From Escherichia phage YX22, in the sequence record OR776998: 64,000 bases of DNA, one strand, 5' to 3'. This document shows, in pieces, positions 7,492 to 64,000 of the stretch (the first letter of the stretch is position 1; every line of letters begins with the position of its first letter). Under the pieces are notes generated by a model, which searched no databases, was not told the DNA's origin, and saw nothing but the letters and a program-made list of their open reading frames with translations. A program made the translations under genes and the position numbers.

Positions 7492-7492
7492 G

Positions 7493-34344: not shown

Positions 34345-34383
34345 TAATGATACCTTTCGCCCCGTTATTGAAATGTTCTTTTA
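34345..34383 (-). promoter_or_regulatory. Repeated promoter-like element (copy 2)
   Basis: Minus strand TTCAATAACGGGGCGAAAGGTATCATTACC, about 45 nt upstream of the ATG at 34317. Confidence 0.4.
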
Positions 34384-35853
34384 GTTCAAGACATATTTGA
34401 TCAGTCCACAATTCCAAATCCTGACCAACCCGGCTTCGGTTGCTAATTGGCTTTCTGTTTTGCCTTCTACGTCATACCCCATGCGAGCAAATGAACCTTT
34501 TCTGAAACCGAATTTGTGCTCACGCATAAATGTGCCAGGCTTGTGATATTTGTAGTCTGGCTTCTGTACTTCCTCTTCTACGAATCCGTGGGATAGGTAA
34601 ATGTTGGACAACCTGCTTACAACACACCTATCCCCAAAGGAATAGATTTTGGTGCCGGTAAATTTTCTTCTGAAGTGTGAAAGAAGTTTACTGAATGCCC
34701 CGTGGCAATCATTAGAGGCAAATCTGACTAATTCCAGGCCATCTTTCCTTTTAGTGAATAGCATCACGGCTTGTATGGCCCCACTCTTGTCAATTAACGA
34801 CAAATGGTGGGTGGAAGAAACGGAACCTTGTATGTGGTGGTTGTCTAAAAACTCCCTCAAGCCGCTTATATTTCCCCAAACGACTTTGTGTTGGCGAGCA
34901 TATGACGCAGGCGTTTTAATTCCAAGTTTAGCTTTCAGAAGAGATTTTACCACTTCCTGTTTCTCAACCCATTCATCTTCCCAGATGTGGATCAACTGGA
35001 TACCCTGAGTTTCACATATTTCAGTCTTTTCCAGGTGATAATGTTTCTCTTTAAAAACTTCTGAATGCCAGTACAGGCCATTAAATTCAATCGCCAATTT
35101 GTGTTCAGGGCAATAGATATCCAGTTGTTTACCGGATAATATACTGTAATCAGAAACAGTGTTTACAACTCCCATTGATGTGAGAAACTCGGATATTTCC
35201 TTTTCATAAGAAGATTTCTTGTTCCTGATAGAACCATTGCTGAACAACGCACGTTTTAGTATGTTCGAATTTTTCATAGGGTTGTCAACACCATAACGTT
35301 CTTGTAACGTTGCCAACGCCTTCTCCCTCACACCAGGTAATTGTAGTGTGGAGCAGCTTCCGTATTTGGATATATTCGAAGTCTCTATGGCTTTCCGACC
35401 AATCCCACCTTTACACATAGAAACCTGATAACATTCTTCAGAACAATATGTTCTGTAATCTTTATTATTGATGTAAAAGTTGGTTTCCTTGGAACACACC
35501 GGGCATATTTTCACGGTTCTATTGTACAGCCAAGCTGTGACTTTACAAGCCAAATCTTGTAGGGTGTTGTGGGTATTGGCGAACACTAAAAGGTCTACAT
35601 TGATGTGCTTCATAAGCAGTTCAGATTTGCATTTTTGGATATCCAATTTGTTGTTCTTGGTAAACATATATTTGTAGAAAAATTGGCGATATGATTCCTC
35701 GTCAGACAATTCATTCACTGCTTCAAGGAAACCTTCCGGGAGGTTCTTTAGGGTGTTCGATGCGAAGGTCTTGCAAGCATCTGAACAAAATTTCTTATCT
35801 TTCCTGGATGCTTTGAACTGTTCATGGCAGACACTACAGATTACCTGATACAT
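34381..35853 (-). CDS. Putative homing endonuclease with Vsr-like PD-(D/E)XK domain and N-terminal zinc fingers
   Basis: ATG at 35853 with SD GGAGGAG; N-terminal CxxC...CxxC pairs (CSVCHEQ...CSDACK; CPVCSKE...CSEECY); central DIYCPEHKLAIEFNGLYWHSE resembles the Vsr/DUF559 motif (FVDGCFWH); inserted just downstream of gp23. Confidence 0.55.
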   Translation of the reverse strand: MYQVICSVCHEQFKASRKDKKFCSDACKTFASNTLKNLPEGFLEAVNELSDEESYRQFFYKYMFTKNNKLDIQKCKSELLMKHINVDLLVFANTHNTLQDLACKVTAWLYNRTVKICPVCSKETNFYINNKDYRTYCSEECYQVSMCKGGIGRKAIETSNISKYGSCSTLQLPGVREKALATLQERYGVDNPMKNSNILKRALFSNGSIRNKKSSYEKEISEFLTSMGVVNTVSDYSILSGKQLDIYCPEHKLAIEFNGLYWHSEVFKEKHYHLEKTEICETQGIQLIHIWEDEWVEKQEVVKSLLKAKLGIKTPASYARQHKVVWGNISGLREFLDNHHIQGSVSSTHHLSLIDKSGAIQAVMLFTKRKDGLELVRFASNDCHGAFSKLLSHFRRKFTGTKIYSFGDRCVVSRLSNIYLSHGFVEEEVQKPDYKYHKPGTFMREHKFGFRKGSFARMGYDVEGKTESQLATEAGLVRIWNCGLIKYVLN

Positions 35854-35900
35854 AATTATTCTCCTCCATATGGTATCTAGTATAACCTGTTCGATAATAT

Positions 35901-35930
35901 GAACAAATAAAAACCCCGCCGAAGCGGGGT
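35901..35930 (-). terminator. Rho-independent terminator after gp23
   Basis: Minus strand: ACCCCGC-ttcg-GCGGGGT followed by TTTTATTTG. Confidence 0.7.
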
Positions 35931-35957
35931 TTGTCAGGGTTAAGGACAACTATTCGA

Positions 35958-50439: not shown

Positions 50440-53400
50440 TTATGCCAGAGCAATCAAACGGAAATCTTTGAATGACGGCGGTGCTATACGGTTGCCTCTG
50501 ACCAGCAGGCGGATCTTCAGGCCAACGAAAGGATTGGTGCTGTCTACAGTCTTGTCATACTCATATTCGAAGAATGCAGAACCGTCATTGACCAGAGGGG
50601 ATGTCGGTGTCACAGTTTCCCATGCCACATTATCCATCTCCTGACCTGCGCGCAGCAGTTTAACCTGCACAGTCATTGAAGACTGAGAAGGTAGCATCGC
50701 GCCGAAGTATTGCTTCAGAGTGGTGCAAGGGTTATCGAATCCGATATCCTTGGTCACATAGCTGAACACATCTTCAAACGGATCCACACCGTAGGTGTTG
50801 AAGATGATAGTGAAATCATCACCGTCGATCATTGGAGCCGTGTAGACATTACTCTCGTTGCGAGTCATGGTTGCACGAACCTGGAAGTCGCCCACCTGAC
50901 GATAGATACCTTCCGTCGGCAGAGACACGTCCGTATCGGATTCGAACTCAACCCAATCAGAGAATGAGTTGGAGGTCGCATCGCGATAGCGGTATTCCAG
51001 TTTCAACACAGATCCTTCCAGGGCTGAATTGGTGACGCTTGCGTAGAACATGTCTACCAAGTAGTTGCCTAGGAAAGAAGCCGCTTCACCACCAATCTGA
51101 CCGTCGGAGTCGGCGTTGGAACTCAGAACGAATTTGAACGTCGTGAACGTCGCATCAGTCACAGTGTGTTGAGCGTTCAGTTGCTCAGGAGTGAAACCGC
51201 AACCACCCGTCAGACCAGACAGAGTAACACTTTCGCCCGCAGTCAGGCCATGCCCCGGAGCGTACACAGTAACAGTTGAAGAACCATTGACACATTTCAC
51301 GGTGTTCAGACCCAGAGGGCGGATCTTCGGACCGACTTTAGCATCGAAGGTCACGATGTTTGAACCAGCGGAGAAGTTACAGCGATACACACGGAACTTC
51401 ATATCGGCAGTCTGGTTTGGAGTCCAGGTCGTACCATTTGAAGATGTGAAGAACACGCCAGTGTACGGCTGTTTGGCAATGAACTCGTTGGTCAGCAAGT
51501 TCTTCTTGCCCATCTCTGCGATGTATGCGTTGTAGTCCTGAGTGTTGGCCAAGAGAACAATCGCGAACTCAGTCTGCGCCTGCAGATACACAGGATAATC
51601 AAACTTGAACATCGTCGGCACAGAAGAGTCTGTGGAGACGGAAACTTCTGATGGATTCAAAGTCTTACGAGTGACGACAGTCGTCGCTGGCAGACCATTG
51701 CTCATCTCACGGATTTCCAAAGTGATTGGAATATCGCGAGACTTGGTAGAGAAGAACACTTCGATGCCTTCGATGTATTCGCCGCCGATATTGGTGGCAA
51801 CCATAAAGGACTGGGCGATAGGATCTTTCCACTTCGCGACTTCAACCGTCTCTGTTTTGTTTTCCGTAGACTTGGTCGCAGTGTATCCCAGGACGCGGGT
51901 GTTGACATAAGTCTTCTGGATGCCCTGTTTCTTACCGAAGGACTTATGAACAGCCTCAGCATTGGTCAGGGTATCATCAGCAGACTTGCTGTCCACAGGA
52001 CTGTCAGTCAGACGGAAGACATTGTCACCCGTGTTAAACTTGATAGTCTCGTTCTGAGGAACCGCAAACACGCCTTTGATGTTGCCGTTGGCGTCAGTAT
52101 TCAACGCACCACCCAGAGCGCCACCGTTTGGGGTACAGTACGCGCTCACATCACGCCCAGAGAAGAACGGATACACACGAGTGAACGGACGCAGGCCTGT
52201 GGCTTCGAAGTTGATGTTCGTTTTGCGCATGTATGGGATTACCTGCGTTTCAACGATCTGCTCGCCAGTCAGGGTAGTGGTCGTCTTGTCGGTGTACGTG
52301 TACGTGGTGACGTCACGGGTAGACACAGTCGTGCGGTAGCGATAGCCCCACCATACACCACCTGCACCATGCGGTTCCCACACACGCTCAGACACGGACA
52401 CAGTACGCCATGTGCCATACACAGAACCTTCTTTGATCGCACCACGGGTGTTGATCGTTTCGTTGATCACACGTGGAGTAACATAGTAGTTCTCAAACCA
52501 GTAATCAGTAGTTGGGTTCAGTTTCAGGAATCCTTCCCAGTTGAACACCGCATACGGGTTCACGTTGATGGTCGTGGTTGCATAGTCCTGGCGGACAGAG
52601 ATCTCACGGGTGTAGTTGCATACAACCATGCCATCCTGAACGTTGTTCCAACCGACTGGCGTCAGGTCAATCGCGTTCTGCTGAACAAACGGACGCAGAC
52701 GACCATTATCAGTGTCGATTGAACCCACCCAGTCTGCAGACAAATCGTCGATCAGGCGGAAGTCTTTGAACGGGTCTGCTGCGATACCGTTCTTGAAGCG
52801 CGGGTTGCCAGTAATTGGATCGAACACCTGTTGTGACATCGCCGAGGATTCCAGCTGAGACAGTGAGGTGTAATATTCGACATTGGAGATACGGGTCTCC
52901 AGTTTACCGATATCGCGCATCGTGTAGCGGCGGTTGTCGATAGTACGAATCTGGATGTCGTCAATGTTGGCCGTGTAAGGCGGGATCATCAATTCATACA
53001 GGCGCATGCCGTTGTCTGGGATCGCAGGGGAAGCCAGGTTGTTGGAACTCACACCACGAGCAACGTTGAACACACCGTTGTCTGCCAGATACACAGCATC
53101 AATACGAGGCAGATAGTACTCTGCATCTAGGATGATCGCGGTGTTCGGGCGAACCATGTCCGTGTCAGACGCTCCGCTGGTGATCTTGGGACGGAAGTCC
53201 AGACTGTCGGCCAACCCATACACAGTACCAGAACTGGATGAAACATAGTTCGGGATGTCTGGATAGTTGATGGACGAATAGGAGTCCGCTGTGAAGAAAT
53301 CACCAGAGCTGTGAGCGAAATACTGATACACCACCGTGAACGTCCCTGAAATGGCTCCAGTGGACGATATGAGGTTAGAAAGGTAGTATGCCGCATCGCG

Positions 53401-55278
53401 TTGACCACCGTCCAGAGTGAAGTTAGAGGTGACGTCAGCGCCATTTGCGTTCTTCACGCTGATCAGCTTGTAACCATCATGGTTCCCAAGTTGTGCGCTG
53501 GCTGTCGCAGTAAACGTCACAGTCTCGGTGGCTTCGGTAACAGTCTTGGTCTTGATCGTCGCTGTGGTGCGGACCATCAATGCCAACAGGTTGATAGACT
53601 GGTTGGCGTACCCCGCGCCCAGGGAAATCTGCAGTGCTGAACCAACCGGAGTACCAGCCAGAGACAGTCCCGAAGAGATATCAAACTGAGCTGCAGTGCC
53701 ATCTGCTTTCGCTGCGGAGTACAGTGAAAACTCAGGGCTGAAGCTGTAACCCAGAGGAGCAGAAATTGAGCCTGCACCAGCAGCGTTCAACGTGATCTTG
53801 TTTGACCGCAGGACAGTGTAGTTGATGTCGATGGTGCCTGTAGGTGCTAGAGTCTTCACACCAAATACAGGCAGAGGGAAGATCAGGTCAATTGCTGAAC
53901 TCTGACTGAACTGATTGGACTCCAGTTCGCAGGAGAACATCGTTGTACCGCTTTCTTCATAAGCGACTTTGGTAACAGTACCCATGTCCCCAGTCACAAC
54001 CAGGTCGCGCATATACAGACGGAATTCAGTACCAGAGCGCTCTGCCGAAATCAGCAGGGCGGTGGCCTGCACATCGCTGGATGCGTTCAGGAACTTGTAG
54101 CGGATTGTGCGGGAGACAACCGGAACCCCTTTGGAGTTCTTGGACACCAGATAGTTGCCAGTCGAAACAGCCACAGGGTTGTTGTTCAGGATATCAGTGT
54201 CACGGGCTTTGTCAATTATGACCAGCTCTTCGCCGAGGTTTTCGATACGACGACCACGAACGTAGGAAATGCCTGGCTTCATAACCGCCACGAATTTGCT
54301 TTCATCACCACCTTCAGCCGGAGTGTAAACGCCGCCGTTGTTGTTCTGTTTCAGATGTTCGCGCAGGTCGATCTGGTGAGTAGAGACGTTGTAGTCACCA
54401 TTGGTCTCATAGGTACGCTGAGCCATGGCGTCTTCGAGGATGTTGTACGTTGACTGGGTGACCATGGACTGAACACGACCGTCTTTCACCTTCGCCAGTT
54501 CAACGAAGTCGGCCACTTCTTCATCATAACCGTAGCGAGACAACACGAGGTCGACGCGCAGGCGATGCGCACCAGGGGCTTTAGAGTTCGGAGTACCCTG
54601 AGCATTGGAGAACAGACTTTCATCTTCTGCTTCGGTCACGATTGTTTCTGTAACTTTGAAGCCAATGCGGTGAGATGTAGAGTTCGATGCGTTGTCTACG
54701 ATCAGAGTGGCTGGTTCAACATCCAGGAACATACCACGAACGAAATAAACACCCTTTGTCATGCGAGCGACAATCGAACCGCCAACAGTATCGGCCACAC
54801 CATAGCCGACACGGATGAAGTTATCGTTCACGTCATAGGTGTTGAAATATAGATTGTCGCCAGCTTCGAAACCGTCTGAACTACCACTCTCAGTCATCTC
54901 TAAGATGGCATACATTGTATCTGGCTCAGCCGGATAACGTTCCAAGGACAGGACGCGTGCTTTCGCATTGTTGTCCTTGCCCAGAACATAGAGTTCGGAG
55001 ATACCTTCCAGATCAGTGAACTCACTACCACCAGCCAGAGTGAACTTCATGGACACAGCAGTGTTGGTGATCGTTAGGCCGCCGGGGATAACCATTGAAC
55101 CGTCTTTGAACAGATGGTTGCCAAGTTTCTCCAGTTGATCCTGGAAGATGGTCTGCATCTGGTTCAGTTCACGCGTCTGAACTTTGATAGGTGCCGGACG
55201 GAATAGGATGCGCGAAAAACGCTTCTCTGGATTCCAGTCATCCCAATATGGGCGGCGGTTGAGGTTCATTTCTTGCAT
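50440..55278 (-). CDS. Giant virion-associated protein (1612 aa), putative tail fibre/baseplate-associated
   Basis: Internal ATG at 55278 (MQEMNLNRRPYWDDW...) downstream of the late-promoter element at 55312-55321, with GGAG 8 nt upstream; located at the head of the neck/tail late block. Confidence 0.6.
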   Translation of the reverse strand: MQEMNLNRRPYWDDWNPEKRFSRILFRPAPIKVQTRELNQMQTIFQDQLEKLGNHLFKDGSMVIPGGLTITNTAVSMKFTLAGGSEFTDLEGISELYVLGKDNNAKARVLSLERYPAEPDTMYAILEMTESGSSDGFEAGDNLYFNTYDVNDNFIRVGYGVADTVGGSIVARMTKGVYFVRGMFLDVEPATLIVDNASNSTSHRIGFKVTETIVTEAEDESLFSNAQGTPNSKAPGAHRLRVDLVLSRYGYDEEVADFVELAKVKDGRVQSMVTQSTYNILEDAMAQRTYETNGDYNVSTHQIDLREHLKQNNNGGVYTPAEGGDESKFVAVMKPGISYVRGRRIENLGEELVIIDKARDTDILNNNPVAVSTGNYLVSKNSKGVPVVSRTIRYKFLNASSDVQATALLISAERSGTEFRLYMRDLVVTGDMGTVTKVAYEESGTTMFSCELESNQFSQSSAIDLIFPLPVFGVKTLAPTGTIDINYTVLRSNKITLNAAGAGSISAPLGYSFSPEFSLYSAAKADGTAAQFDISSGLSLAGTPVGSALQISLGAGYANQSINLLALMVRTTATIKTKTVTEATETVTFTATASAQLGNHDGYKLISVKNANGADVTSNFTLDGGQRDAAYYLSNLISSTGAISGTFTVVYQYFAHSSGDFFTADSYSSINYPDIPNYVSSSSGTVYGLADSLDFRPKITSGASDTDMVRPNTAIILDAEYYLPRIDAVYLADNGVFNVARGVSSNNLASPAIPDNGMRLYELMIPPYTANIDDIQIRTIDNRRYTMRDIGKLETRISNVEYYTSLSQLESSAMSQQVFDPITGNPRFKNGIAADPFKDFRLIDDLSADWVGSIDTDNGRLRPFVQQNAIDLTPVGWNNVQDGMVVCNYTREISVRQDYATTTINVNPYAVFNWEGFLKLNPTTDYWFENYYVTPRVINETINTRGAIKEGSVYGTWRTVSVSERVWEPHGAGGVWWGYRYRTTVSTRDVTTYTYTDKTTTTLTGEQIVETQVIPYMRKTNINFEATGLRPFTRVYPFFSGRDVSAYCTPNGGALGGALNTDANGNIKGVFAVPQNETIKFNTGDNVFRLTDSPVDSKSADDTLTNAEAVHKSFGKKQGIQKTYVNTRVLGYTATKSTENKTETVEVAKWKDPIAQSFMVATNIGGEYIEGIEVFFSTKSRDIPITLEIREMSNGLPATTVVTRKTLNPSEVSVSTDSSVPTMFKFDYPVYLQAQTEFAIVLLANTQDYNAYIAEMGKKNLLTNEFIAKQPYTGVFFTSSNGTTWTPNQTADMKFRVYRCNFSAGSNIVTFDAKVGPKIRPLGLNTVKCVNGSSTVTVYAPGHGLTAGESVTLSGLTGGCGFTPEQLNAQHTVTDATFTTFKFVLSSNADSDGQIGGEAASFLGNYLVDMFYASVTNSALEGSVLKLEYRYRDATSNSFSDWVEFESDTDVSLPTEGIYRQVGDFQVRATMTRNESNVYTAPMIDGDDFTIIFNTYGVDPFEDVFSYVTKDIGFDNPCTTLKQYFGAMLPSQSSMTVQVKLLRAGQEMDNVAWETVTPTSPLVNDGSAFFEYEYDKTVDSTNPFVGLKIRLLVRGNRIAPPSFKDFRLIALA

Positions 55279-55311
55279 TTTGATGCTCCATCGATAGGTG
55301 CCATTATAGAG

Positions 55312-55321
55312 ATATTTAGTA
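55312..55321 (-). promoter_or_regulatory. Late-promoter-like element (TATACTAAATATC) upstream of the giant structural gene
   Basis: CTAAATAT core about 35 nt upstream of the ATG at 55278. Confidence 0.45.
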
Positions 55322-55384
55322 TACAACCAACCGAGGAATAGAAAGAAATAAGCCCGAAGGGGCTTTGATTATCTTTCTGTGGTT

Positions 55385-55516
55385 ATGGTCATGGATTCGA
55401 GACCTCTGCCATTCATGGTAGATGGTATTCAATTAGGTATGTTTAATATATCAGGTCAGACTATTACCTTAACTGCTGTATCGATTAGGGTAATGCAAAC
55501 AGTAAACTCTATATAA
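55385..55516 (+). CDS. Small plus-strand ORF, truncated paralogue of the 60275-60514 ORF
   Basis: Own translation MVMDSRPLPFMVDGIQLGMFNISGQTITLTAVSIRVMQTVNSI (43 aa, below the ORF-track threshold); C-terminal 35 aa nearly identical to the 60275-60514 product with mostly synonymous nucleotide differences. Confidence 0.4.
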   Translation: MVMDSRPLPFMVDGIQLGMFNISGQTITLTAVSIRVMQTVNSI

Positions 55517-55539
55517 AAAGTATTATTAATAAGTAAAAA

Positions 55540-55569
55540 CAACCCCATAGAAGTGGGGTTGTTTTTAAG
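55540..55569. terminator. Bidirectional terminator hairpin
   Basis: CAACCCCA-tagaag-TGGGGTTG followed by TTTTT on plus, with a T-run on minus as well; sits between the small plus ORF and the end of the 55580-57493 tailspike gene. Confidence 0.65.
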
Positions 55570-55579
55570 TGATTATTAC

Positions 55580-57493
55580 TTACATAACAACTGCGGCAGA
55601 TATGTATCCTGAATCTTGATACGATCCAGAAAGGTCAAAAACTTCTAAGTTAAAAGAGTCAGGGGATGTACTTACGGCATTAATTACTAATTTCCCTCCG
55701 CTAGTGGTATTGCCAACACTGCATAAAACAGCATAAGCAGAGGAGGGCATAGTATTAGATAGGTTGACGGTATATTTACCGGTCCCGGTTTTAGTTACAG
55801 TTGCTCCATCCGCATACACTAACGACCCCGAAATTCCATTAAAATTGATCATTGCCCGTGTACATGCACTCGACCTTTTTGCGACGGTAGACCCAATAAA
55901 TGCGTATTCTTGGGCCTTGTTAATATAAATCTTATTAACAGAAGTGTCAGGTACTTGTAAGACGTTGTCTATAACAACATTACAGGCTGTTGCTCCAGAT
56001 ACGGTAGAGCATCTATCTATCTCATAATTGTCGATATTAATAGCCCTTACAAAACCTATACCCCCAAATGCTGACCAGTTTTGTTTAACAAGAACACCGG
56101 AAATACCGGACAGGAAAATAAGATCGCCTGTCGTATCTTTGCTAAACGTGTTGTTGGTTATTGAAACAGAAGAAGAACGCGGTGAGTGACTATCATCTGC
56201 AACATATACCCTGGCTAAAGAAGAAGCAGTATTCTCTTCAAAGTAGTTACCATCTACCAGTAACTGCTGTGCACCCCCGGCGACAACACCTACGTCATAG
56301 CCCGTGTTTGCTTCAAATAGAGAGTCTCTGACTATGAAATTTCGTACACTACTTGCAGTACCTGAGTCTCCGATAAGAACACCGTTAACACCATCAAAGA
56401 AAGTACAATTATCAACTTTAACTACGTTGATATCTACCTTTGACGTTTTTACACCATTTGCACATTTAGCGAAATAGCATGAAGTTAGTTCAGCTACTCC
56501 GGAAAAATAGTCTGGGCTATCGTAATGTAAATAGACCCCATATCGAGCGTTTCTGACAACGCAATCTTGAAGTTTTAAATACCAAGCCCCACCGAAATCA
56601 AAGCCATCAGATGATGAATCCTGGATATCCAGAAAAAGTCCAGAAATCTTAGCTCCTATCGCACCACCTTGAACCCGAATGGCGGGTGACGCTAACCCGG
56701 TAAACTTAATTACTGAACCTGTTGTTTGGTCATTAACATGTCCAAAACTATTACCAACAATACATAGACTATCAGTGGCAGTTATGATTAAAGTAGAGCT
56801 TATAAGATAAATACCATCCGGTATGTATAAACTCTTTTTCGAATCTATTGCTGCCTGAAACGCGGCGGTATCATCGGTCACACCGTCGCCAACAGCCCCG
56901 AAGTCCTTGACTGACACCAGGTCTTTATTTTTATCATATAGTGTTCGCTTAATGGAGTTGGCCAGAGGTGACTTAAATCCGACCAGACCAGCGCCATCAT
57001 CAGATGCAAGATTGATTCTCAAGGCTGCATCACCAACACTAACCCATTTGCCTAACCCAGTACCACCAGCACTTTCAGGAGTTGAGCCAGAAGAAACGGT
57101 TTTAGGTAACTCGCCATCCCAGCGATACTTACCTGTTGTATGGGTAAGCAATTCATTTTTAACATTAAGTGTAGCACCAGTGTCAAACGACCCAGGCAAT
57201 GTAACGTATTCTTCACGGGATACGGCTAATTCCCCAAGATCTATGGAACCAGCTGAATGTACAAGTACAGCATTAGTACCAAGACTTACAGCAGTAGTTC
57301 CTGCCGGAAGTACAGGTAATGAGTAAGCTCGTTGAGTAGTCTTATCGTAAATGACCTTGTAACCACCTAAGTCTACACCTACAGCAAAGTAGACTACTTC
57401 ATTCTGCTTAACACCAAACTTACGGGCAATGGCTTGCTTATTGGTAAGAATACCAGTGGAGCCTTTACCACCTTGGGAGAACATCTCGTTCAT
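55580..57493 (-). CDS. Tailspike protein with parallel beta-helix (pectate-lyase-like) depolymerase domain
   Basis: 637 aa; N-terminal 150 aa conserved with the 60567-63593 protein (anchor module); C-terminal region has repetitive beta-helix coil signatures (NCTFFDGVNGV, GNYFEEN, ITNNTF). Confidence 0.75.
   Translation of the reverse strand: MNEMFSQGGKGSTGILTNKQAIARKFGVKQNEVVYFAVGVDLGGYKVIYDKTTQRAYSLPVLPAGTTAVSLGTNAVLVHSAGSIDLGELAVSREEYVTLPGSFDTGATLNVKNELLTHTTGKYRWDGELPKTVSSGSTPESAGGTGLGKWVSVGDAALRINLASDDGAGLVGFKSPLANSIKRTLYDKNKDLVSVKDFGAVGDGVTDDTAAFQAAIDSKKSLYIPDGIYLISSTLIITATDSLCIVGNSFGHVNDQTTGSVIKFTGLASPAIRVQGGAIGAKISGLFLDIQDSSSDGFDFGGAWYLKLQDCVVRNARYGVYLHYDSPDYFSGVAELTSCYFAKCANGVKTSKVDINVVKVDNCTFFDGVNGVLIGDSGTASSVRNFIVRDSLFEANTGYDVGVVAGGAQQLLVDGNYFEENTASSLARVYVADDSHSPRSSSVSITNNTFSKDTTGDLIFLSGISGVLVKQNWSAFGGIGFVRAINIDNYEIDRCSTVSGATACNVVIDNVLQVPDTSVNKIYINKAQEYAFIGSTVAKRSSACTRAMINFNGISGSLVYADGATVTKTGTGKYTVNLSNTMPSSAYAVLCSVGNTTSGGKLVINAVSTSPDSFNLEVFDLSGSYQDSGYISAAVVM
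57040..57493 (-). repeat. Diverged direct repeat: tailspike N-terminal anchor module (copy A)
   Basis: Nucleotide and protein similarity to 63125-63593 over about 450 nt, for example shared ELAVSREEYVTLPGSFDTGATLNVKNELLTH. Confidence 0.7.
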
Positions 57494-57550
57494 AACAACC
57501 TCTTTGTTTTTCTAGTAAACCACCCCTTATGGGGGTGGGGGAGTAGTTGA

Positions 57551-60229
57551 TTAGCTTAATGGTTTTACTTCCCATCGCTTGTCATAGTAATGTGCAAAAC
57601 CACAGTAGGATACAGACAGATGAACGATTGCATTTACTAGGCTTGCTGTAGGTAATGCAATTCTGACAAATGTTTTACCGTCACGTACCAGTTTAGTTAC
57701 TGTTACCCCGGAAAGAGATTTATCACCAGCAATCATATTAGACCAGACTGCACCAGAGGCTACATTTTCCTGTGTGCTACCGGATAGCCCAAACAGAATA
57801 CTGCCCCCTGATTCAGTACCAGCCAAACCATTTTTGTTAACTGGAATGATATCTGCACGCCCAGCAACGAAGCAACCATCTGGGATTTTAGTCTCTTCCC
57901 CTACAGCACAGAGAAATATATCCAAAGCCCTGTTCCATGGAACCAGTACAGTAGCTTCCTTGTGGTCAACACTCCGGAAGAACGAACTGCTATTAGAGTG
58001 AATTGCCGACAAAGTAGTGCCTGTATATGAGTTACGACCCTGTACAATATCTTCTCCATATACCCTGCCCCGGTAAAGGTTACCACGGTTATATGTAGAT
58101 ATTGTGTAGGAACCATCGCTAACTTTTAAAAATTCAAAATTACTATTTAATGTAACACTACGCCCAATATACTGGTTACTTGGAGAAGTGGTATTCTCCA
58201 TCAATTTGATAGCATAGTCAGAGTTAACGTAACCACTGTCAAAGATAATCCTACCAGCCTGGTACTCATTAGTAGGTAACTCAATAAAATGAGTTACACC
58301 AGTATTCATTTTAGACTGAATCCAACAAGAAACATCTCTGAATACGATTGTTGTTTGTGCAGCAGGGGAAGCTAACTGTGAGAAGTCTAATGCCACTGGC
58401 CCATTTATCCCTTCAATACCGAAGCCAGAGAATGAGAGGCTACGAATATCTCCATAAAATTTATGAGGTAAAATGCAACCATCTGCTGCAATGTTGCTAG
58501 TAGCAACATACATGACAGGCAATCCATTACTGACTGGCTCATATGTAGTACGGTTAATGGCAGCTCCCCATAAAAAACCAATGTCACAATGGTGTGCCCA
58601 AATAGATGACATATCCGTACTAGTGCTTCCATTGATACCAAAACCATAGGTACAGTCATATGCATACAAATTGGTCATAACACTAACAAAGCAAGCCATA
58701 GGCAAAGCGAACTTATAGTGGTAAAAGTCCACATCATGCACATTAAATGTCTTACCGCCACCACCTATGCCATTGCTTAAATCGAATGAACTAATAACAA
58801 GAGGACTACCTACGTAATCAGAATCAGCATTTCGGAAAGAGAGGCGACCAATAGTAATATTGTGTCCCCATCTGGTAGAGATGAATCCACCCTTACCTGA
58901 TGTATAAATAATACTTTGTCTCTGACCAAGACCCGTAATGGATAGAGATCTGCCAGTCCAACGCTGATTGCTAATATCAATCTGTGTATCACCAATATAC
59001 ATTGGTTGGGTAATTTTGATATTCAACCCATTAGCTACAGCATATGAATAGGTTGCTAACAAAGCATCCCCATCATTGTGCACACCAGTCAGGTCAGCAG
59101 CCCCCATACTTGGTGCTTTAGGATACGGACCGCCCTGAATGGTGCTGCCGTCGATATATGGGGCGTCCATCCACGCACCAAACATAGATGGGGTAACTTC
59201 GGTGCTACCACGTAAATCACGTACCCAACGTTTGCCGGATGCAGTAACAATAGTCATACCATTATCATCTGCTGATGTAACAGATGGTTTATATACAAAA
59301 TACCCGCCACCTAAATCACCGGCATTGGTTGCAATCATACCGTCAGTATGGGCTTCTACGTAAATACGTTGTTCAGCATAGGTAGGCTCAATTGTTCGCA
59401 GTACTGCAATATTGGGGCATGTACCAATCAGCTTACTACCATCAGGCTTGCTCAGGTCTTCTCTGAGACTAGCACCAGAATTTGGGACTTCCATCAAATC
59501 TACGGTAATGTTACCTGGACTGTAGGTTAACTGACCATTAGACACAGAACTAATATAGACATTGGTCGGTAATGAAGGCAGGCCATAAATTTTCTGAGCA
59601 GCTGCATCGAAGATAACTTTCTTGTTATCGAGTACTTGAGATGTATCCGTATTAAGAATTACCTCAGAATCTTTTACATTAGCTGAACGAGCGATTTCTT
59701 GAATACTTCGGTCAAACAACGGACTGATATTCGGTTGTTTAACAGACATTTCAGCGACTACCCAAACGCCTGCAGTCAGCGCAGTTTGTAAAGACACTTT
59801 CCCTGTCGTGCTGTCATAGGAATATTCAATTTCTGGTGTTTTGTACTCACCACCGATATAAAGAGATTGGACTCCATAAGATGTGTAATCAGGAGTGAAC
59901 TCGGTTTCACCTCCTATAGCCTGAAACTTATAGATTCGAATCCCGGTTTTATAATCTTCTGGAGACAGAATCTTATCAAACAGACAGAACACAACGTCAC
60001 CTTTGGATAATGCACACCCGAGATTCAACGTATTTCCATCGATTTCAAAGTTGTCTAACGGAACTTGCATACCACCGTTGATTGTGACTATACCCGTGAC
60101 AGGGTAGAAAGGGAGGGAGATAAACTTCTCTCCGCCCGTTGCTGTGTAAGTGTATGGAATCTGGTGCGGAGCTGTTACGACCGCTCCAAAGATGCTCTCG
60201 ACGTTTCTGGTCATTTGAAGATACCCCAT
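57551..60229 (-). CDS. Tailspike/tail fibre protein (892 aa)
   Basis: Long late ORF preceded by a late-promoter element; G/S/T-rich beta-rich sequence typical of receptor-binding proteins; alternative start at 60214 (MTRNV...). Confidence 0.7.
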   Translation of the reverse strand: MGYLQMTRNVESIFGAVVTAPHQIPYTYTATGGEKFISLPFYPVTGIVTINGGMQVPLDNFEIDGNTLNLGCALSKGDVVFCLFDKILSPEDYKTGIRIYKFQAIGGETEFTPDYTSYGVQSLYIGGEYKTPEIEYSYDSTTGKVSLQTALTAGVWVVAEMSVKQPNISPLFDRSIQEIARSANVKDSEVILNTDTSQVLDNKKVIFDAAAQKIYGLPSLPTNVYISSVSNGQLTYSPGNITVDLMEVPNSGASLREDLSKPDGSKLIGTCPNIAVLRTIEPTYAEQRIYVEAHTDGMIATNAGDLGGGYFVYKPSVTSADDNGMTIVTASGKRWVRDLRGSTEVTPSMFGAWMDAPYIDGSTIQGGPYPKAPSMGAADLTGVHNDGDALLATYSYAVANGLNIKITQPMYIGDTQIDISNQRWTGRSLSITGLGQRQSIIYTSGKGGFISTRWGHNITIGRLSFRNADSDYVGSPLVISSFDLSNGIGGGGKTFNVHDVDFYHYKFALPMACFVSVMTNLYAYDCTYGFGINGSTSTDMSSIWAHHCDIGFLWGAAINRTTYEPVSNGLPVMYVATSNIAADGCILPHKFYGDIRSLSFSGFGIEGINGPVALDFSQLASPAAQTTIVFRDVSCWIQSKMNTGVTHFIELPTNEYQAGRIIFDSGYVNSDYAIKLMENTTSPSNQYIGRSVTLNSNFEFLKVSDGSYTISTYNRGNLYRGRVYGEDIVQGRNSYTGTTLSAIHSNSSSFFRSVDHKEATVLVPWNRALDIFLCAVGEETKIPDGCFVAGRADIIPVNKNGLAGTESGGSILFGLSGSTQENVASGAVWSNMIAGDKSLSGVTVTKLVRDGKTFVRIALPTASLVNAIVHLSVSYCGFAHYYDKRWEVKPLS

Positions 60230-60293
60230 AGAGGATTTGCCAATATGGGGTATTTAGTCTGAACTAATAAATTTATGAACAAAGGTATAACAA
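60218..60293. repeat. Repeated promoter cassette (copy 1), about 75 bp
   Basis: Near-identical to 63597-63672: ...ccaatatggggtatttag(t/g)ctgaactaataaatttatgaacaaaggtataacaag; contains the late-promoter core and a 9-bp inverted repeat ATACCCCAT/ATGGGGTAT spanning the tailspike start codon. Confidence 0.8.
60245..60257 (-). promoter_or_regulatory. Late-promoter-like element CAGACTAAATACCCCAT
   Basis: About 20 nt upstream of the tailspike ATG at 60229. Confidence 0.5.
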
Positions 60294-60514
60294 GGAGAAC
60301 CAATGGAACTACAATAGTAGGTTCAGATGCCAGTACCAAAGTTCAGGGTGTAGATATAGCCAACAGGGATAACGTTTTAGCTACTTACACACTAGGTTCA
60401 GCAGACCCTTTCATGGTGGATGGTATACAGTTAGGTATGTTCAACATATCAGGTCAGACTATTACCTTAACTGCTGTATCAGTAAGGGTAATGCAAACAG
60501 TAAACTCTATATAA
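60275..60514 (+). CDS. Small plus-strand protein (79 aa) embedded between tailspike genes
   Basis: ATG at 60275; C-terminus conserved with the 55385-55516 paralogue, mostly synonymous differences; followed by a plus-strand terminator. Confidence 0.5.
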   Translation: MNKGITRRTNGTTIVGSDASTKVQGVDIANRDNVLATYTLGSADPFMVDGIQLGMFNISGQTITLTAVSVRVMQTVNSI

Positions 60515-60530
60515 AAAGTATTATTAATAA

Positions 60531-60568
60531 GTAAAAACTAACCCCGCCGAAGCGGGGTTTTGTTTATT
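60531..60568. terminator. Bidirectional terminator hairpin (ACCCCGC-cgaa-GCGGGGT)
   Basis: Followed by TTTTGTTTATT on plus and preceded by a T-run on minus; the same stem sequence occurs at 35913-35930. Confidence 0.7.
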
Positions 60569-63500
60569 ACTTCTGTTCAAGAGCAGAAAGTCTGGCTTCG
60601 ATTCTTTCCAGTTTTCTTCGCTGATAAGCAGCTTCAGCAAAGAAAATTCCGTCAGGCCGCACGCCCCACTCCTCACCCTCTTCGTGAATAACCACCTCAG
60701 TGAATACAGGCTCTTCCGTGGTGGTGACATTACCCTCCTCGTCAGTGTGTTCAACGATTTCATTGTGCGAAAATACCATATCGGTCATCCGTGGATACTT
60801 GTCATAGCACAGAACGGCATAACGACAATCCGTACTGTTTTCGTCCATCAGACCATGTGCAATGAATACATCACGAATTTGCTGAGCAATAACCCCGAAG
60901 TGAATACGAGCTTCATTGCCTTTCAGTTGAACAGCATCTAACCACTGGTACATGATGTAGTGAACGTCACCCCAGGCATCCAGGAAAGCATCATCAAAAA
61001 CTACCGGCTCCGTTTTCTTCTCTCCGTTAGAAGTAACAATAGGGTTGCTTCCGAGGTATGCAGTGGTGAAACGGTTGCTGGGCCCACCAAGAGCAATAGC
61101 GTTATCGTTATAAGGCTTAACATCAGCAGTCTGGAACAGGTGCTCAGCTCCGTTGTAAACTATCCTGCGAGAAGCTGTGTTATTCGCACCGTAAAGCGTA
61201 ATCTGTGCACCAGTAGAAGAACTGGTTCCTTCTCCACCGCAAAATATGGTGCGCTGTCCTGCTGGGTTATTAGTAGGTACAGATTTCCCAATAAACCCAT
61301 ACTCGCCTTCCAGTAGCATTTCAGAGCGAATGTTATTACTGGTGCTGGCCCTAAGGGTCACATGACCTAAACCCAAATCTCCTGTAAATTCCATTGGCGC
61401 AGGGACAGTGCGAACCCCATTCGTATCAAAAAACACGGGAACAGCTCTGTCAGGTACAGCACCATATCTGAAATCCCTGGAAACACGATTGTCTGGGCCA
61501 ATCTTCATTTTGTAGCAATACAAATCTGAGGGATGACCATCTGATTTGAATGGGTCTTTCGCTGAGTTATCTCCATATGTCCAGGGGTTCAGATGGTCTT
61601 CCCCACCGAACATGTAATAGATATAACTATCCTTAACAACCACTGAGCCAACACCGACTCCAGAGTTGACAATACCGCCCTGATAAATCTGGTCAGTGAT
61701 ATTCACCCACTGAGTATTATCCAGGTTCCAGGTGTCTAGGTTCACTCGCGTGTAGAACGTTCGTGGATAAGAAGTAAAGTATCGTTGATCAGGTACATTG
61801 GCTTCCCATTCGTTATCAGCACGCTCTGTGGCGAAAATGATTAGTTCATTACCGACTTTAGCGAACGGCAACGTAGAGTGGTGAACATTATTAGGAAATC
61901 TGAGTGATTCCCAAGTCATGCCCAAATCATGACTACGATGCAACGAACTCCCCAAACGATCTGAACGAGTACCACGAGTTAAGACATAAAGAACGCCATC
62001 AAAATATTTAACGCAAGGCTCTGCCGCATCAGGTTCATAATCAGCAGGAATACGACGTTTTTGGTATAAACCCGGGTTATTAAACGCATCCGGGAAATAC
62101 AACATGCCAACTTCACGAGGAGCAACATCACCTTGGTGATACCCCATCATGAATGAATCATTATTGATGGCGGTAAAACTATGAACTTCAGTCACCATTG
62201 GGATTAACCCAAGGCTGGTTTTACGCCACGGCGACTCATGGAACGATGTACCCATATGCCAACGGCTGGTAGAATTATTTTGGTCAAACGCCTGTTGATT
62301 TGGCGTGGTAACTGTGAAAGTGTTGCGGTCAATAACTGAAGTTACAGTCATATTCCCTGAAACTCCAGTCACCCCAGAGTTTGAGAAGTTAACAAAATCC
62401 CCAGCAAAAAGACCGTGTTCAGGGATAGTAATTACAGCCACAGGCTGGTTGGCGGCTTTAGTGATACCGCCTGTCGGATGGTAGTTACGGGACATGGGGC
62501 GATCCCACAACTCACAGGTTACCAGTGCGTTAGATGCCAATGTACGGGTCTCAATCATCGCAAAGAGACGATTACGCATCACCCCCATACTCATGCAGTG
62601 GTAGTTAACTGTCGGATAGTCAGGATGTAGGTCGGTTAACCACTCCGGGGTTGTCCAGGTCTGTCCGTCATCCCCTGAACGAACCCAGGATACATGCAGC
62701 CTGCTAACCCCATGTCTATCACTAGCCATGAACGGACAGTAAATAACATCGTCGTAAACGAACGCTTTATCTTGTGGCCACGCATTGTAATAAGGGGTGT
62801 CCGTTATTTTGAACAGCTCGCCCTGAACAAATTCTTCAGAGGCATAATAAAGCGGCTGACCAGGAATACGCTCATAAACAAAACGAGTGTTGACGAATCG
62901 ACTAATGTCAGGCAAGGATGTGACCTTATATGTCTTCCCATTGCCATTAATTTTCTGACCAACTGGTGCGGCGTTTAATACGCCATTAAGCGCTGAGGTG
63001 TCATCGGTGACCCCATCACCTTTTGCATTCCACCCGCGCGGGTCGAATGTGTCTCTCCATCTTGCGATCTGCAAATCTGGATATTTTGTTGCGCCATCAG
63101 GGTCAGAAAGCTGGCTTCTTAATGAAGCATCACCAACACTAACCCATGCACCAGTTCCAGTGCCACCAGTACTCCCAGGAGTTGAACCAGCTGGAACTGT
63201 TTTAGGGAATTCACCCTCCCAACGATACTTACCCGCTACATGAGTAAGGAGTTCATTTTTAACATTAAGTGTAGCACCAGTATCAAACGACCCAGGTAAA
63301 GTCACATATTCTTCGCGACTTACGGCTAACTCCCCAAGGTCTACAGAACCAGCCGAATGAGCGAGGATTGCCTGTTCGTTCAGACTAACAGCAGTCGTTC
63401 CTGAAACAATACCTGAAGGAAGAGAATAAGCCCGTTGGGTAGACTCATCATAAATTACTTTAAATCCACTGAGATCAATACCAGCAGTGAAATAAACGAC

Positions 63501-63593
63501 TTCGTCTTCTTTGACACCGAAATTTCGAGCGATAGATTGTTTGTTAACTTCTATGGAAGTGGAGCCGCGTGGTTGATTGAATTGAGAAATCAT
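60567..63593 (-). CDS. Tailspike protein with BNR/Asp-box (sialidase-like beta-propeller) domain, 1008 aa
   Basis: N-terminal anchor module shared with the 55580-57493 protein; Asp-box-like motifs SGDDGQTW and SHDLGMTW; late-promoter element upstream. Confidence 0.7.
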   Translation of the reverse strand: MISQFNQPRGSTSIEVNKQSIARNFGVKEDEVVYFTAGIDLSGFKVIYDESTQRAYSLPSGIVSGTTAVSLNEQAILAHSAGSVDLGELAVSREEYVTLPGSFDTGATLNVKNELLTHVAGKYRWEGEFPKTVPAGSTPGSTGGTGTGAWVSVGDASLRSQLSDPDGATKYPDLQIARWRDTFDPRGWNAKGDGVTDDTSALNGVLNAAPVGQKINGNGKTYKVTSLPDISRFVNTRFVYERIPGQPLYYASEEFVQGELFKITDTPYYNAWPQDKAFVYDDVIYCPFMASDRHGVSRLHVSWVRSGDDGQTWTTPEWLTDLHPDYPTVNYHCMSMGVMRNRLFAMIETRTLASNALVTCELWDRPMSRNYHPTGGITKAANQPVAVITIPEHGLFAGDFVNFSNSGVTGVSGNMTVTSVIDRNTFTVTTPNQQAFDQNNSTSRWHMGTSFHESPWRKTSLGLIPMVTEVHSFTAINNDSFMMGYHQGDVAPREVGMLYFPDAFNNPGLYQKRRIPADYEPDAAEPCVKYFDGVLYVLTRGTRSDRLGSSLHRSHDLGMTWESLRFPNNVHHSTLPFAKVGNELIIFATERADNEWEANVPDQRYFTSYPRTFYTRVNLDTWNLDNTQWVNITDQIYQGGIVNSGVGVGSVVVKDSYIYYMFGGEDHLNPWTYGDNSAKDPFKSDGHPSDLYCYKMKIGPDNRVSRDFRYGAVPDRAVPVFFDTNGVRTVPAPMEFTGDLGLGHVTLRASTSNNIRSEMLLEGEYGFIGKSVPTNNPAGQRTIFCGGEGTSSSTGAQITLYGANNTASRRIVYNGAEHLFQTADVKPYNDNAIALGGPSNRFTTAYLGSNPIVTSNGEKKTEPVVFDDAFLDAWGDVHYIMYQWLDAVQLKGNEARIHFGVIAQQIRDVFIAHGLMDENSTDCRYAVLCYDKYPRMTDMVFSHNEIVEHTDEEGNVTTTEEPVFTEVVIHEEGEEWGVRPDGIFFAEAAYQRRKLERIEARLSALEQK
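63125..63593 (-). repeat. Diverged direct repeat: tailspike N-terminal anchor module (copy B)
   Basis: Paralogous to 57040-57493. Confidence 0.7.
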
Positions 63594-63596
63594 GAT

Positions 63597-63672
63597 AATA
63601 CCCCATAAAGGATGACCAATATGGGGTATTTAGGCTGAACTAATAAATTTATGAACAAAGGTATAACAAGAA
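63597..63672. repeat. Repeated promoter cassette (copy 2)
   Basis: Near-identical to 60218-60293; here the small plus ORF is reduced to a 33-codon remnant running into a hairpin. Confidence 0.8.
63621..63633 (-). promoter_or_regulatory. Late-promoter-like element CAGCCTAAATACCCCAT
   Basis: About 30 nt upstream of the tailspike ATG at 63593. Confidence 0.5.
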
Positions 63673-63695
63673 CCCTGCCGAAGAGGGGGTTAGTT

Positions 63696-64000
63696 TTACG
63701 GGTAAGCACTCTCGAACTTACAGAACCAAGTCGTTCCTCCATCAGTTGTTGACAACCTAAAAACTTGTGTTCCAGCTGCTGTCAAAGATGGGGTACTACT
63801 TGCTAATATAACATTTGCACCAAATGTTATTGTTTTAGATGTTGTTGAATAGACAGCCAAAAGAACCTCAACATAACCAATTAGTGTATTTGTTAATACT
63901 GCTGGAGTTATTGTTACATCTCCTGTAACTGTAGCTGCGATGTAAGATGCGTCTGAAAAGTCAGGCGCATAACTTGCTGTTGGCGTCTCGAACTTTGGAT
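63696..64000 (-). CDS. C-terminal end of a further minus-strand gene (probable additional tail fibre/tailspike); start beyond the window end
   Basis: Own translation of the minus strand is open from the window end to TAA at 63696-63698, ending ...TDGGTTWFCKFESAYP; T/S/G-rich like receptor-binding proteins; not in the ORF track because no start lies in the window. Confidence 0.45.
   Translation of the reverse strand, partial: PKFETPTASYAPDFSDASYIAATVTGDVTITPAVLTNTLIGYVEVLLAVYSTTSKTITFGANVILASSTPSLTAAGTQVFRLSTTDGGTTWFCKFESAYP

Follow-up and report, generated by a model that had tools for sequence, protein, structure and literature searches.

The 64,000-nt stretch of DNA analysed here (the window) comes from Escherichia phage YX22, an Agtrevirus (Ackermannviridae) already in GenBank, and over positions 31000-55500 (24.5 kb) it is 98.3% identical at the nucleotide level to phage RPN242. 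Beyond this backbone lie three complete tailspike ORFs, tsp1 (637 aa, 55580-57493), tsp2 (892 aa, 57551-60229) and tsp3 (1008 aa, 60567-63593), and a partial fourth at the window end, as the first-pass annotation of this DNA had listed them. The 637-aa and 1008-aa products are exact matches to the YX22 proteins WPH64567.1 and WPH64569.1, respectively. The features of the locus are as follows.

63696-64000, minus strand: 3′ end of tsp4 (last 100 codons plus stop; stop at 63696-63698), from the frame translation
63616-63670, minus strand: 55-nt conserved leader upstream of tsp3 (repeat D3), with CTAAATACCCC at 63623-63633
63099-63593, minus strand: tsp3 codons 1-165, TD1-TD2 head (docking module), from the CBA120 TSP3 match and Pfam Tail_spike_N
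61032-63026, minus strand: tsp3 codons 190-854, putative endosialidase N-terminal extension, six-bladed beta-propeller with beta-barrel insert, and stalk, from Pfam and the K1F structures
60570-61031, minus strand: tsp3 codons 855-1008, putative intramolecular chaperone/autocleavage domain (Peptidase_S74), from PF13884 and 3gw6
60540-60559, minus strand: bidirectional intrinsic-terminator-like hairpin after tsp3, from the terminator scan
60275-60514, plus strand: 79-aa ORF, remnant (last ~74 aa) of a Gamaleyavirus gene, from the ORF list, phrog_17779 and tblastn
60240-60294, minus strand: 55-nt conserved leader upstream of tsp2 (repeat D3), with CTAAATACCCC at 60247-60257
59168-60229, minus strand: tsp2 codons 1-354, XD (T4 gp10-like) assembly domains and head, from the CBA120 TSP2 match
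57554-59167, minus strand: tsp2 codons 355-892, beta-helix receptor-binding domain as modelled, from AF2 and Foldseek
56999-57493, minus strand: tsp1 codons 1-165, TD1-TD2 head (docking module), from the CBA120 TSP1 match and Pfam Tail_spike_N
55583-56998, minus strand: tsp1 codons 166-637, beta-helix receptor-binding domain as modelled, from Pfam Pect-lyase_RHGA_epim and AF2/Foldseek
55534-55567, minus strand: bidirectional terminator-like hairpin after tsp1, from the terminator scan
55379-55516, plus strand: 45-aa ORF, second and shorter copy of the podophage gene remnant, from the ORF list and repeat D2
50440-55326, minus strand: VriC-like giant structural gene (DUF4815; 1612 aa from the ATG at 55278)

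All tailspike ORFs and the VriC ORF are carried on the minus strand, so that the tailspike genes come before VriC in transcription, in the order tsp4, tsp3, tsp2, tsp1, VriC. The first-pass annotation was thus right that the tailspike genes adjoin the giant 1612-aa protein, but not that they follow it. The order baseplate genes, tsp4, tsp3, tsp2, tsp1, VriC is the same in RPN242, AV101 and vB_CECAV_050, the synteny having been read from tsp4 through VriC, with the baseplate side of the YX22 cluster lying beyond the window end. The giant ORF next to the cluster encodes 1628 aa if started at a TTG and 1612 aa if started at its first ATG, its AV101 orthologues are annotated 'virulence-associated VriC protein', and its region is 98-99% identical at the nucleotide level to RPN242, AV101 and fGh-Ecl02 up to 55383-55414; VriC flanks the tailspike cluster and is outside the tailspike complex. 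At the opposite end, the tsp4 fragment is 99% identical in amino acid sequence to the C-terminus of the 1003-aa TSP4-position tailspike of the Agtrevirus vB_CECAV_050, which adjoins baseplate connector genes. The GC content of the tsp region is 0.41-0.45 versus ~0.50 in the backbone. The leaders upstream of tsp3 and tsp2 (direct repeat D3) are 98% identical, and their motif CTAAATACCCC, which occurs four times in the window against 0.02 expected, is listed as an Ackermannviridae regulatory motif (PMC7283392). The 64,000-nt window yielded no tRNA, tmRNA or Rfam family, and a literature search on phage YX22 found no paper.

A TD1-TD2 head stands at the very start of both TSP1 and TSP3 (Pfam PF18668 in both; Tail_spike_N at aa 90-155 in each). 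The first-pass annotation had described this shared N-terminal module as near-identical and about 150 aa long. Homology of the two modules is clear (BLASTP, 62% identity over 219 aa, E 4e-69), but they are not near-identical (62-80% aa, ~60-80% DNA) and they extend to ~165 aa. At the protein level the copies are 62% identical across aa 1-80, 80% across aa 81-165 and 27% further on; DNA identity is ~60-65% over nt 1-240 and ~81% over nt 241-480, and the longest DNA repeat spans 269 nt at 79%. A duplication or gene conversion of recent date in YX22, leaving two interchangeable copies of one anchor, would fit the homology and one 30-nt stretch in which the copies agree at 29 positions, but it is very unlikely in view of an overall identity of just ~71% aa and ~70% nt and of the relationships of each head outside this genome. 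Because other Agtrevirus genomes carry, at the same position, an orthologue of each head with 84-93% nucleotide identity, against 68-75% between the two copies in YX22, the two are old paralogues. The best PDB sequence matches are likewise position-specific, TSP1 aa 1-216 matching CBA120 TSP1 (4oj5, E 5e-87) and TSP3 aa 1-165 matching residues 1-165 of CBA120 TSP3 (5w6f/6nw9, E 4e-83); the AF2 model of TSP1 matches both 6nw9 and 4oj5. In addition, the net charge of aa 1-80 is +4 in TSP1 and -2 in TSP3, a difference between the TD1 domains that is also reported for CBA120 (PMC11721090). Recent duplication was set aside on the identity levels and the positional orthology, and each of the two heads is probably specific to its position, so that they do not amount to a single interchangeable anchor.

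The N-terminal part of TSP2 (aa 6-354) matches residues 1-343 of full-length CBA120 TSP2 (6w4q, E 5e-143), and the 5′ end of tsp2 is 91-93% identical at the nucleotide level to RPN242, AV101 and CECAV_050. In CBA120, TSP1 docks through its TD1-TD2 head on XD3 of TSP4, and TSP3 through its own on XD3 of TSP2 (PMC11414711, PMC11721090), although the mode of TSP3-TSP2 binding is not settled (PMC11721090). The word anchor in the first-pass annotation is therefore imprecise, as the CBA120 heads do not dock on the baseplate. By analogy with CBA120, TSP4 of YX22 would anchor the complex to the baseplate, TSP2 would be joined to TSP4 via gp10-like XD domains, the TSP1 head would dock on TSP4 XD3 and the TSP3 head on TSP2 XD3, and the four trimers would all be on display at once, with a different surface polysaccharide for each to degrade. 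The YX22 cluster resembles the TSP1-TSP4 complex of CBA120 and AV101 in its order and position between VriC and baseplate wedge genes, in the gp10-like XD domains of TSP2, in TSP1 and TSP3 that comprise only a TD1-TD2 head and a catalytic domain, and in conserved N-termini with variable C-termini (PMC10791037, PMC11414711). It departs from that complex in receptor-binding domains that differ from every phage in the searched collection and in a TSP3 that carries a predicted beta-propeller endosialidase with an autocleaving chaperone instead of a beta-helix. Conserved N-terminal modules with exchangeable C-termini constitute the published model for Ackermannviridae (PMC8432352, PMC10791037, PMC10408124), and the proposal that these genes are exchangeable host-range cassettes of a multi-tailspike phage agrees with the conserved assembly modules, variable C-terminal enzymes and mosaic junctions found here. 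The region is very probably the tsp cluster of an Agtrevirus, encoding the subunits of a branched tailspike complex in which mosaic spikes were built by recombination.

The same annotation had also allowed for a switchable receptor range, which gained no support. A tandem series of alternative receptor-binding genes whose flanks are repeated might be taken for a phase-variable array in which one cassette is expressed or displayed at a time. However, the sole inverted repeat, 20 nt long and 80% complementary, is not meaningful, the genes are all co-oriented, both tsp3 and tsp2 come with a leader of their own, and no invertase or reverse transcriptase was noticed in a general look over the genes beside tsp in close relatives. 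Moreover, the four spikes of CBA120 and of AV101 are found together in one star-like complex (PMC10791037). An invertible or phase-variable switch was rejected for want of usable inverted repeats and is scarcely credible at this locus.

As the first-pass annotation had proposed, the C-terminal domain of the 637-aa protein appears to be a beta-helix, with a pectate-lyase-like Pfam signature and an AF2 model (confident over aa 20-450, poor over aa 453-562) whose Foldseek matches include CBA120 TSP3/TSP1 (E 1e-27) and Sf6 (1e-8). TSP2 had no local Pfam match, and PF27114, precomputed on its relatives, was absent from the local scan of TSP2; the AF2 model of aa 340-892 has a mean pLDDT of 84.8, and its top Foldseek matches are all phage tailspike beta-helices (APK09, E 1.6e-9; Sf6, TMq 0.47; HK620; CBA120 TSP2). 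The APK09, Sf6 and HK620 tailspikes match the TSP1/TSP2 models at E 1e-9 to 1e-5. TSP1's receptor-binding domain is 93.6% identical in amino acid sequence to a part of phage dw-ec that bears no annotation, and metagenomic contigs of 14-150 kb encode proteins 92-100% identical to the domain, while TSP2 as a whole is 97.4% identical to USL85811.1 of Enterobacter phage fGh-Ecl02 and has C-terminal homologues at 43-58% identity that include tailspikes of P22-like E. coli prophages. No close characterised homologue of either receptor-binding domain was found, the nearest relatives being unannotated or hypothetical. Fold comparison of the C-terminal domains thus places TSP1 and TSP2, as modelled, among the beta-helix tailspikes, a fold class made up mostly of depolymerases, and their substrates are probably O-antigens.

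TSP3 is of another kind. The first-pass annotation had seen an Asp-box sialidase-like propeller in the 1008-aa protein, and the comparison with known families and structures bears this out. Two Asp-boxes are present (SGDDGQTW at aa 306 and SHDLGMTW at aa 554), and all four endosialidase domains of Pfam are found, End_N_terminal, End_beta_propel (E 1e-204), End_beta_barrel and End_tail_spike, with PF12218, PF12217 (680 bits), PF12195 and PF12219 scoring far over their cut-offs. The solved K1F endoNF structures 1v0e/3gvl are matched at E = 0; TSP3 aa 190-854 align end to end with 1v0e over spans of 665 residues each, and aa 734-1008 match 3gw6 (E 4e-176). The roles of Glu581, Arg596 and Arg647 in endoNF were reportedly described by Stummeyer and colleagues in 2005, and their equivalents E525, R540 and R591 in TSP3 (constant offset of +56) we take to be the catalytic Glu/Arg/Arg by correspondence with endoNF. 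Likewise, S855, K860 and R841 align with endoNF S911, K916 and R897, whose roles are described in PMC8326128, K860 and R841 having been read from the translation at the same offset. On its domains and residues, TSP3 is thus predicted to be a complete K1F/K1E-type endo-alpha-2,8-sialidase that sits behind an Ackermannviridae TSP3 head and has a C-terminal chaperone autocleaving by a Ser-Lys dyad, and this architecture leads to the prediction that it recognises and degrades the polysialic acid capsule of E. coli K1.

The propeller, beta-barrel, stalk and C-terminal chaperone of TSP3 are shared with endoNF (K1F gp17), K1E/K1-5, Gamaleyavirus UE-S5a/b and PBM-2/3, but the attachment modules differ: that of YX22 is an Ackermannviridae TSP3-type TD1, K1F uses a domain like T7 gp17, and the Gamaleyavirus endosialidases have an N-terminus of 375 aa that contains XD domains. 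TSP3 has 93-96% amino acid identity with endosialidases of isolated K1 phages and Gamaleyavirus; with K1F the figures are ~74% aa over TSP3 aa 102-300 and ~82% nt across the gene, the homology to gp17 starting within TD2, at aa 102. The TSP3 head evidently tolerates non-beta-helix cargo with an autocleaving chaperone domain. That cargo is nevertheless unusual for this head, and other signs might also suggest a passenger without function, a chimera of recent origin that fails to fold or to dock or plays no part in infection. Among the 15 members listed of the 23 in its 90% cluster, TSP3 is the sole protein of 1008-aa length; a second Ackermannviridae endosialidase chimera was absent from 50,697 phage records (megablast, tblastn); a literature search found no report of a sialidase spike in Ackermannviridae. 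A large protein search with TSP3 aa 1-330 gave partial overlaps only, a weak negative because that search looked incomplete, the query's own cluster not being returned. Against a passenger, however, the tsp3 ORF is intact, the catalytic and autocleavage residues are all present, the gene has its own leader motif and terminator, and its product is 93-96% identical in amino acid sequence to endosialidases of isolated K1 phages. In addition, K1F gp17 and proteins of 976-995 aa from other types of phage have the same TD2-plus-endosialidase fusion, so that the junction is a proven viable design. We therefore consider a passenger improbable and a working endosialidase spike the preferred reading.

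Mosaicism at the boundary of the N-terminal module, which the first-pass annotation had expected from comparative genomics, was found in both tsp1 and tsp3. The 5′ end of tsp3 is 92.9% identical at the nucleotide level to vB_CECAV_050 to about aa 158, Agtrevirus homology as a whole stops at ~aa 136-158, and the position at which endosialidase homologues join TSP3 varies with the type of phage (aa 81, 102 or 169-175). In tsp1, the block common to YX22 and fGh-Ecl02 stops at aa ~127, and a contiguous block of 2137 nt that is 88.9% identical to a 70-kb Gamaleyavirus-like contig spans the gene and its terminator as well as 108 nt of the neighbour convergent to it; the 45-aa remnant is the end of this block, and backbone homology restarts at 55413/55414. 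These alignments place the mosaic junctions within aa ~100-175, in TD2 or the neck, and immediately past the terminators. The cluster would have been assembled by homologous recombination, with 5′ crossovers in TD2 or the neck and 3′ crossovers in the conserved terminator-plus-remnant region. The 3′ junctions at a conserved terminator are like the conserved recombination motifs described earlier (Pas et al. 2023, PMC10408124; Sorensen et al. 2021, PMC8432352), but the published 3′ motif is 20 nt, whereas the 3′ flank in YX22 is 138-248 nt and includes a recognisable podophage gene fragment.

Judged by their sequences, the closest relatives of tsp1 and of the catalytic part of tsp3 are the Gamaleyavirus (N4-like) podophages. 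Gamaleyavirus-like contigs of ~70 kb encode a second tailspike 87-91% identical to TSP1 over its whole length, and the TSP1 head is homologous to gp63.1 (4qnl) of the two-tailspike module of G7C (gp66 plus gp63.1), although the podophage head docks on gp66; the branching domains of Kuttervirus and Gamaleyavirus are homologous (PMC10408124). In Gamaleyavirus, a complete convergent gene (208-217 aa) lies downstream of the second tailspike gene, whereas YX22 keeps only this gene's last 35-74 codons, in two copies (direct repeat D2, 138 nt at 92%), one 3′ of tsp1 and one 3′ of tsp3. This truncation suggests that tsp1 and the catalytic part of tsp3 moved from podophage to myophage, a direction read from one truncated flanking gene. 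The endosialidase was probably acquired from N4-like podophages, and repeated exchange in both directions between podophages and Ackermannviridae is possible.

The cluster is ordinary in design, the K1-type endosialidase spike being its one unusual feature; tailspike-cluster architecture and the recombination model are already published, and YX22 changes no current model. We suggest, tentatively and at somewhat less than even confidence, that YX22 is the first recognised member of the Ackermannviridae with an endosialidase in its branched complex and that the remnants are a directional footprint of podophage-to-myophage transfer. To our knowledge, the targets of this family have so far been O-antigens, the Vi capsule and Klebsiella capsules, and YX22 would extend them to the capsule of E. 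coli K1, the neonatal meningitis and urosepsis lineage. If this prediction holds, YX22 would be a large, broad-host-range Ackermannviridae phage against K1 E. coli that could also hit up to three further polysaccharide types, and such a phage would be of interest for phage therapy cocktails and engineering. The proposed footprint would mean that tailspike genes with their 3′ flanks had moved from Gamaleyavirus into a large myophage, with TD2 and the terminator region as homology arms. According to Stummeyer et al. 2006, so far as that work is cited in PMC6966330, endosialidase modules are grafted onto the recipient phage's own attachment module. TSP3 is one more clean example, and the cluster offers base-level junctions and a possible direction for exchange between phage families.

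The larger remnant might be mistaken for a new small gene, since its frame is still open over 79 aa on the plus strand. This candidate was rejected: the ORF matches the 3′ fragment of the 208-217-aa podophage gene, aligning with positions 136-207 of 208 in phrog_17779 and sharing 90-93% amino acid identity with annotated 208-aa genes of Gamaleyavirus phages (tblastn). No ribosome-binding site was seen for it by eye. The DNA of the region is 87% identical to L005 7979-8226, and the first five codons of the ORF derive from the tsp2 leader repeat.

Three complete open reading frames (ORFs) of 637, 892 and 1008 aa and a partial fourth at the window end, as listed in the first-pass annotation, are present in YX22:

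55580-57493, minus strand: tsp1, 637 aa (ORF list and translation)
57551-60229, minus strand: tsp2, 892 aa (ORF list and translation)
60567-63593, minus strand: tsp3, 1008 aa (ORF list and translation)
stop codon at 63696-63698, minus strand: partial tsp4 ORF entering from the window edge, 100 codons visible (frame translation)
50440-55326, minus strand: giant ORF on the VriC side, 1612 aa counted from its first ATG (1628 aa if a TTG is taken instead) (ORF list)

Because the tailspike genes and the giant gene all lie on the minus strand, the tailspike genes are transcribed ahead of the giant gene rather than following it, as had been supposed. In the related Agtrevirus genomes RPN242, AV101 and vB_CECAV_050, the interval runs baseplate wedge, two small genes, tsp4, tsp3, tsp2, tsp1 and VriC, and the ORF cut off by the window edge shares 99% identity with the C-terminus of the tailspike that CECAV_050 has in the tsp4 position; therefore, the four ORFs are tsp4 (partial), tsp3, tsp2 and tsp1. 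The structural region (31000-55500) shares 98.3% identity with Agtrevirus vB_EcoM-RPN242 and 97% with AV101, and GC content is 0.41-0.45 over the tsp genes versus about 0.50 in the backbone. In the GenBank YX22 genome (2307YX22; 154,890 bp), exact matches to the 1008-aa and 637-aa proteins are labelled 'tail spike protein' and 'hypothetical protein', respectively.

TSP3 is predicted to be a K1-type endosialidase. It contains all of the Pfam endosialidase domains plus Peptidase_S74, with two Asp-boxes; residues 190-854 align end to end with the K1F phage endosialidase endoNF (1v0e, E = 0), and for residues 734-1008 the match is 3gw6, a structure of the endoNF chaperone domain. At a constant offset of +56, TSP3 E525, R540 and R591 correspond to endoNF E581, R596 and R647, which we take to be the catalytic residues (Stummeyer et al. 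2005). Likewise, the endoNF autocleavage residues S911, K916 and R897, whose roles have been described (PMC8326128), correspond to S855, K860 and R841, the first from the computed alignment and the other two read off the TSP3 sequence at the same offset. No endosialidase spike in an Ackermannviridae phage was found in the phage collection searched (50,697 records) or among the listed members of the TSP3 protein cluster, and no description of one was found in the literature searched. The predicted K1 specificity in an Agtrevirus is a modestly interesting point. It is already established that K1 phages emerged repeatedly through grafting of an endosialidase to the attachment module already in place (Stummeyer et al. 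2006, cited in PMC6966330).

The N-terminal module shared by TSP1 and TSP3 is indeed homologous (E 4e-69), although 'near-identical' overstates the likeness: protein identity is 62% over aa 1-80, 80% over aa 81-165 and 27% over aa 166-220, while DNA identity is about 60-65% over nt 1-240 and about 81% over nt 241-480, the longest ungapped repeat (269 nt) being 79% identical. The best solved-structure match of TSP1 aa 1-216 is CBA120 TSP1 (4oj5, E 5e-87), and that of TSP3 aa 1-165 is CBA120 TSP3 (5w6f/6nw9, E 4e-83). At the DNA level, each head is more similar to the positional orthologues that other Agtrevirus genomes carry (84-93%) than to its own paralogue in YX22 (68-75%), and the net charge of aa 1-80 is +4 in TSP1 versus -2 in TSP3, the same contrast described for the CBA120 heads (PMC11721090). 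Judged from sequence, the shared module is the TD1-TD2 head, and the two heads are old and probably position-specific paralogues. In CBA120, the TSP1 head docks on TSP4 XD3 and the TSP3 head on TSP2 XD3, and the baseplate is not the docking site (PMC11414711). The expected XD-containing N-terminus is present in TSP2 (aa 6-354 versus full-length CBA120 TSP2, 6w4q, E 5e-143). Part of this region (59553-59701) also shows 72% nucleotide identity with positions 11974-12122 of record L003, the N-terminal region of a 1215-aa Gamaleyavirus endosialidase (a gp66-type first tailspike), in agreement with the published homology of Kuttervirus RBP2 and Gamaleyavirus RBP1.

The mosaic junctions could be placed at several positions. 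Starting at the tsp4 3′ end, homology to Agtrevirus tsp3 genes reaches about aa 136-158 of TSP3, with a CECAV_050 block at 92.9% identity over 64000-63118. Endosialidase homology joins TSP3 at aa 169-175 in 1214-1215-aa proteins of the N4-like Gamaleyavirus podophages (93-96% aa identity), at aa 102 in IME392 and K1F, and at aa 81 in 976-983-aa proteins of 45-58-kb contigs. Together, these limits place the tsp3 crossover within the helical neck or TD2. Enterobacter phage fGh-Ecl02 encodes a protein with 97.4% identity to TSP2, and the shared 3146-nt block (57114-60258) ends within tsp1 TD2, at about aa 127. A 70-kb Gamaleyavirus-like contig matches 57521-55409 in a single 2137-nt alignment (88.9%) comprising, in order, 28 nt before the tsp1 start codon, all of tsp1, its terminator and 108 nt of a convergent downstream gene; RPN242 and fGh-Ecl02 backbone homology restarts at 55413/55414. 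As a separate observation, the depositors of fGh-Ecl02 labelled its tsp3-position gene (7014-9116) as 85% identical to a tail fiber protein from podophage G7C, which gives an independent instance of a tailspike shared by Gamaleyavirus and Ackermannviridae. Kuttervirus is given in the fGh-Ecl02 taxonomy line, yet the phage shares 97% identity with the YX22 Agtrevirus window across its structural region.

The sequences flanking the tailspike genes include repeated leaders, located by repeat and motif search, and gene fragments:

60240-60294, minus strand: 55-nt leader with CTAAATACCCC, upstream of tsp2
63616-63670, minus strand: 55-nt leader with CTAAATACCCC, upstream of tsp3
28728-28738 and 31925-31935, minus strand: further CTAAATACCCC copies
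60275-60514, plus strand: phrog_17779 gene fragment, last ~74 codons in a 79-aa ORF, just past the tsp3 terminator
55379-55516, plus strand: phrog_17779 gene fragment, last ~35 codons in a 45-aa ORF, just past the tsp1 terminator

CTAAATACCCC is among the regulatory motifs named for Ackermannviridae (PMC7283392). The presence of leaders (98% identical) before tsp2 and tsp3 but not tsp1, together with a tsp1-tsp2 gap of only 57 nt, points to two transcription units, one with tsp3 and the other with both tsp2 and tsp1. The terminator scan found terminator-like hairpins after tsp3 and tsp1. In Gamaleyavirus, the phrog_17779 gene is complete (208-217 aa) and convergent to the second tailspike gene, while records of Agtrevirus genomes leave the fragment without annotation or label it a tiny hypothetical protein. 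The 79-aa ORF is still open, its first five codons deriving from the tsp2 leader repeat. Both fragments are probable hitch-hiking remnants that mark where transferred tailspike blocks end on their 3′ side, and the position of a podophage gene remnant there suggests that the blocks may have moved from podophage to myophage. Base-level junctions and a directional footprint of inter-family exchange are likewise of modest interest.

The TSP1 and TSP2 receptor-binding domains resemble beta-helix tailspikes. The model of TSP2 aa 340-892 (mean pLDDT 84.8) has only phage beta-helix tailspikes as PDB matches (APK09, E 1.6e-9; Sf6, TMq 0.47; HK620; CBA120 TSP2), and tailspikes of P22-like E. coli prophages are among its sequence relatives (43-58% identity). 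The TSP1 model, confident over aa 20-450 and poor over aa 453-562, matches CBA120 TSP3/TSP1 (E 1e-27) and Sf6 (about 1e-8).

The published tailspike model (drawn from PMC10791037, PMC8432352, PMC11414711, PMC11721090 and PMC10408124) already includes a branched TSP complex, Agtrevirus N-termini that are conserved but joined to unique receptor-binding domains, a tandem-repeat domain as recombination site, receptor-binding domains resembling those of distantly related phages or prophages, homologous Kuttervirus and Gamaleyavirus branching domains, and proposed cross-genus recombination hotspots (conserved 5′ motifs, one of 44 nt and one of 95 nt, plus a 20-nt terminator as the 3′ motif). The first-pass view of exchangeable host-range cassettes in a multi-tailspike phage is correct but restates this model; a 'switchable' receptor range found no support in an inverted-repeat search of the locus.

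Across 1-64000, the searches found neither tRNA nor tmRNA genes, nor any Rfam family at the gathering threshold. A low-GC segment (34381-35949, minus strand; 0.42 versus about 0.50) holds a 522-aa ORF adjoining the gp23 major capsid gene, with a weak REase_MTES_1575 match under the Pfam cut-off; relatives have a homing endonuclease annotated in this region.
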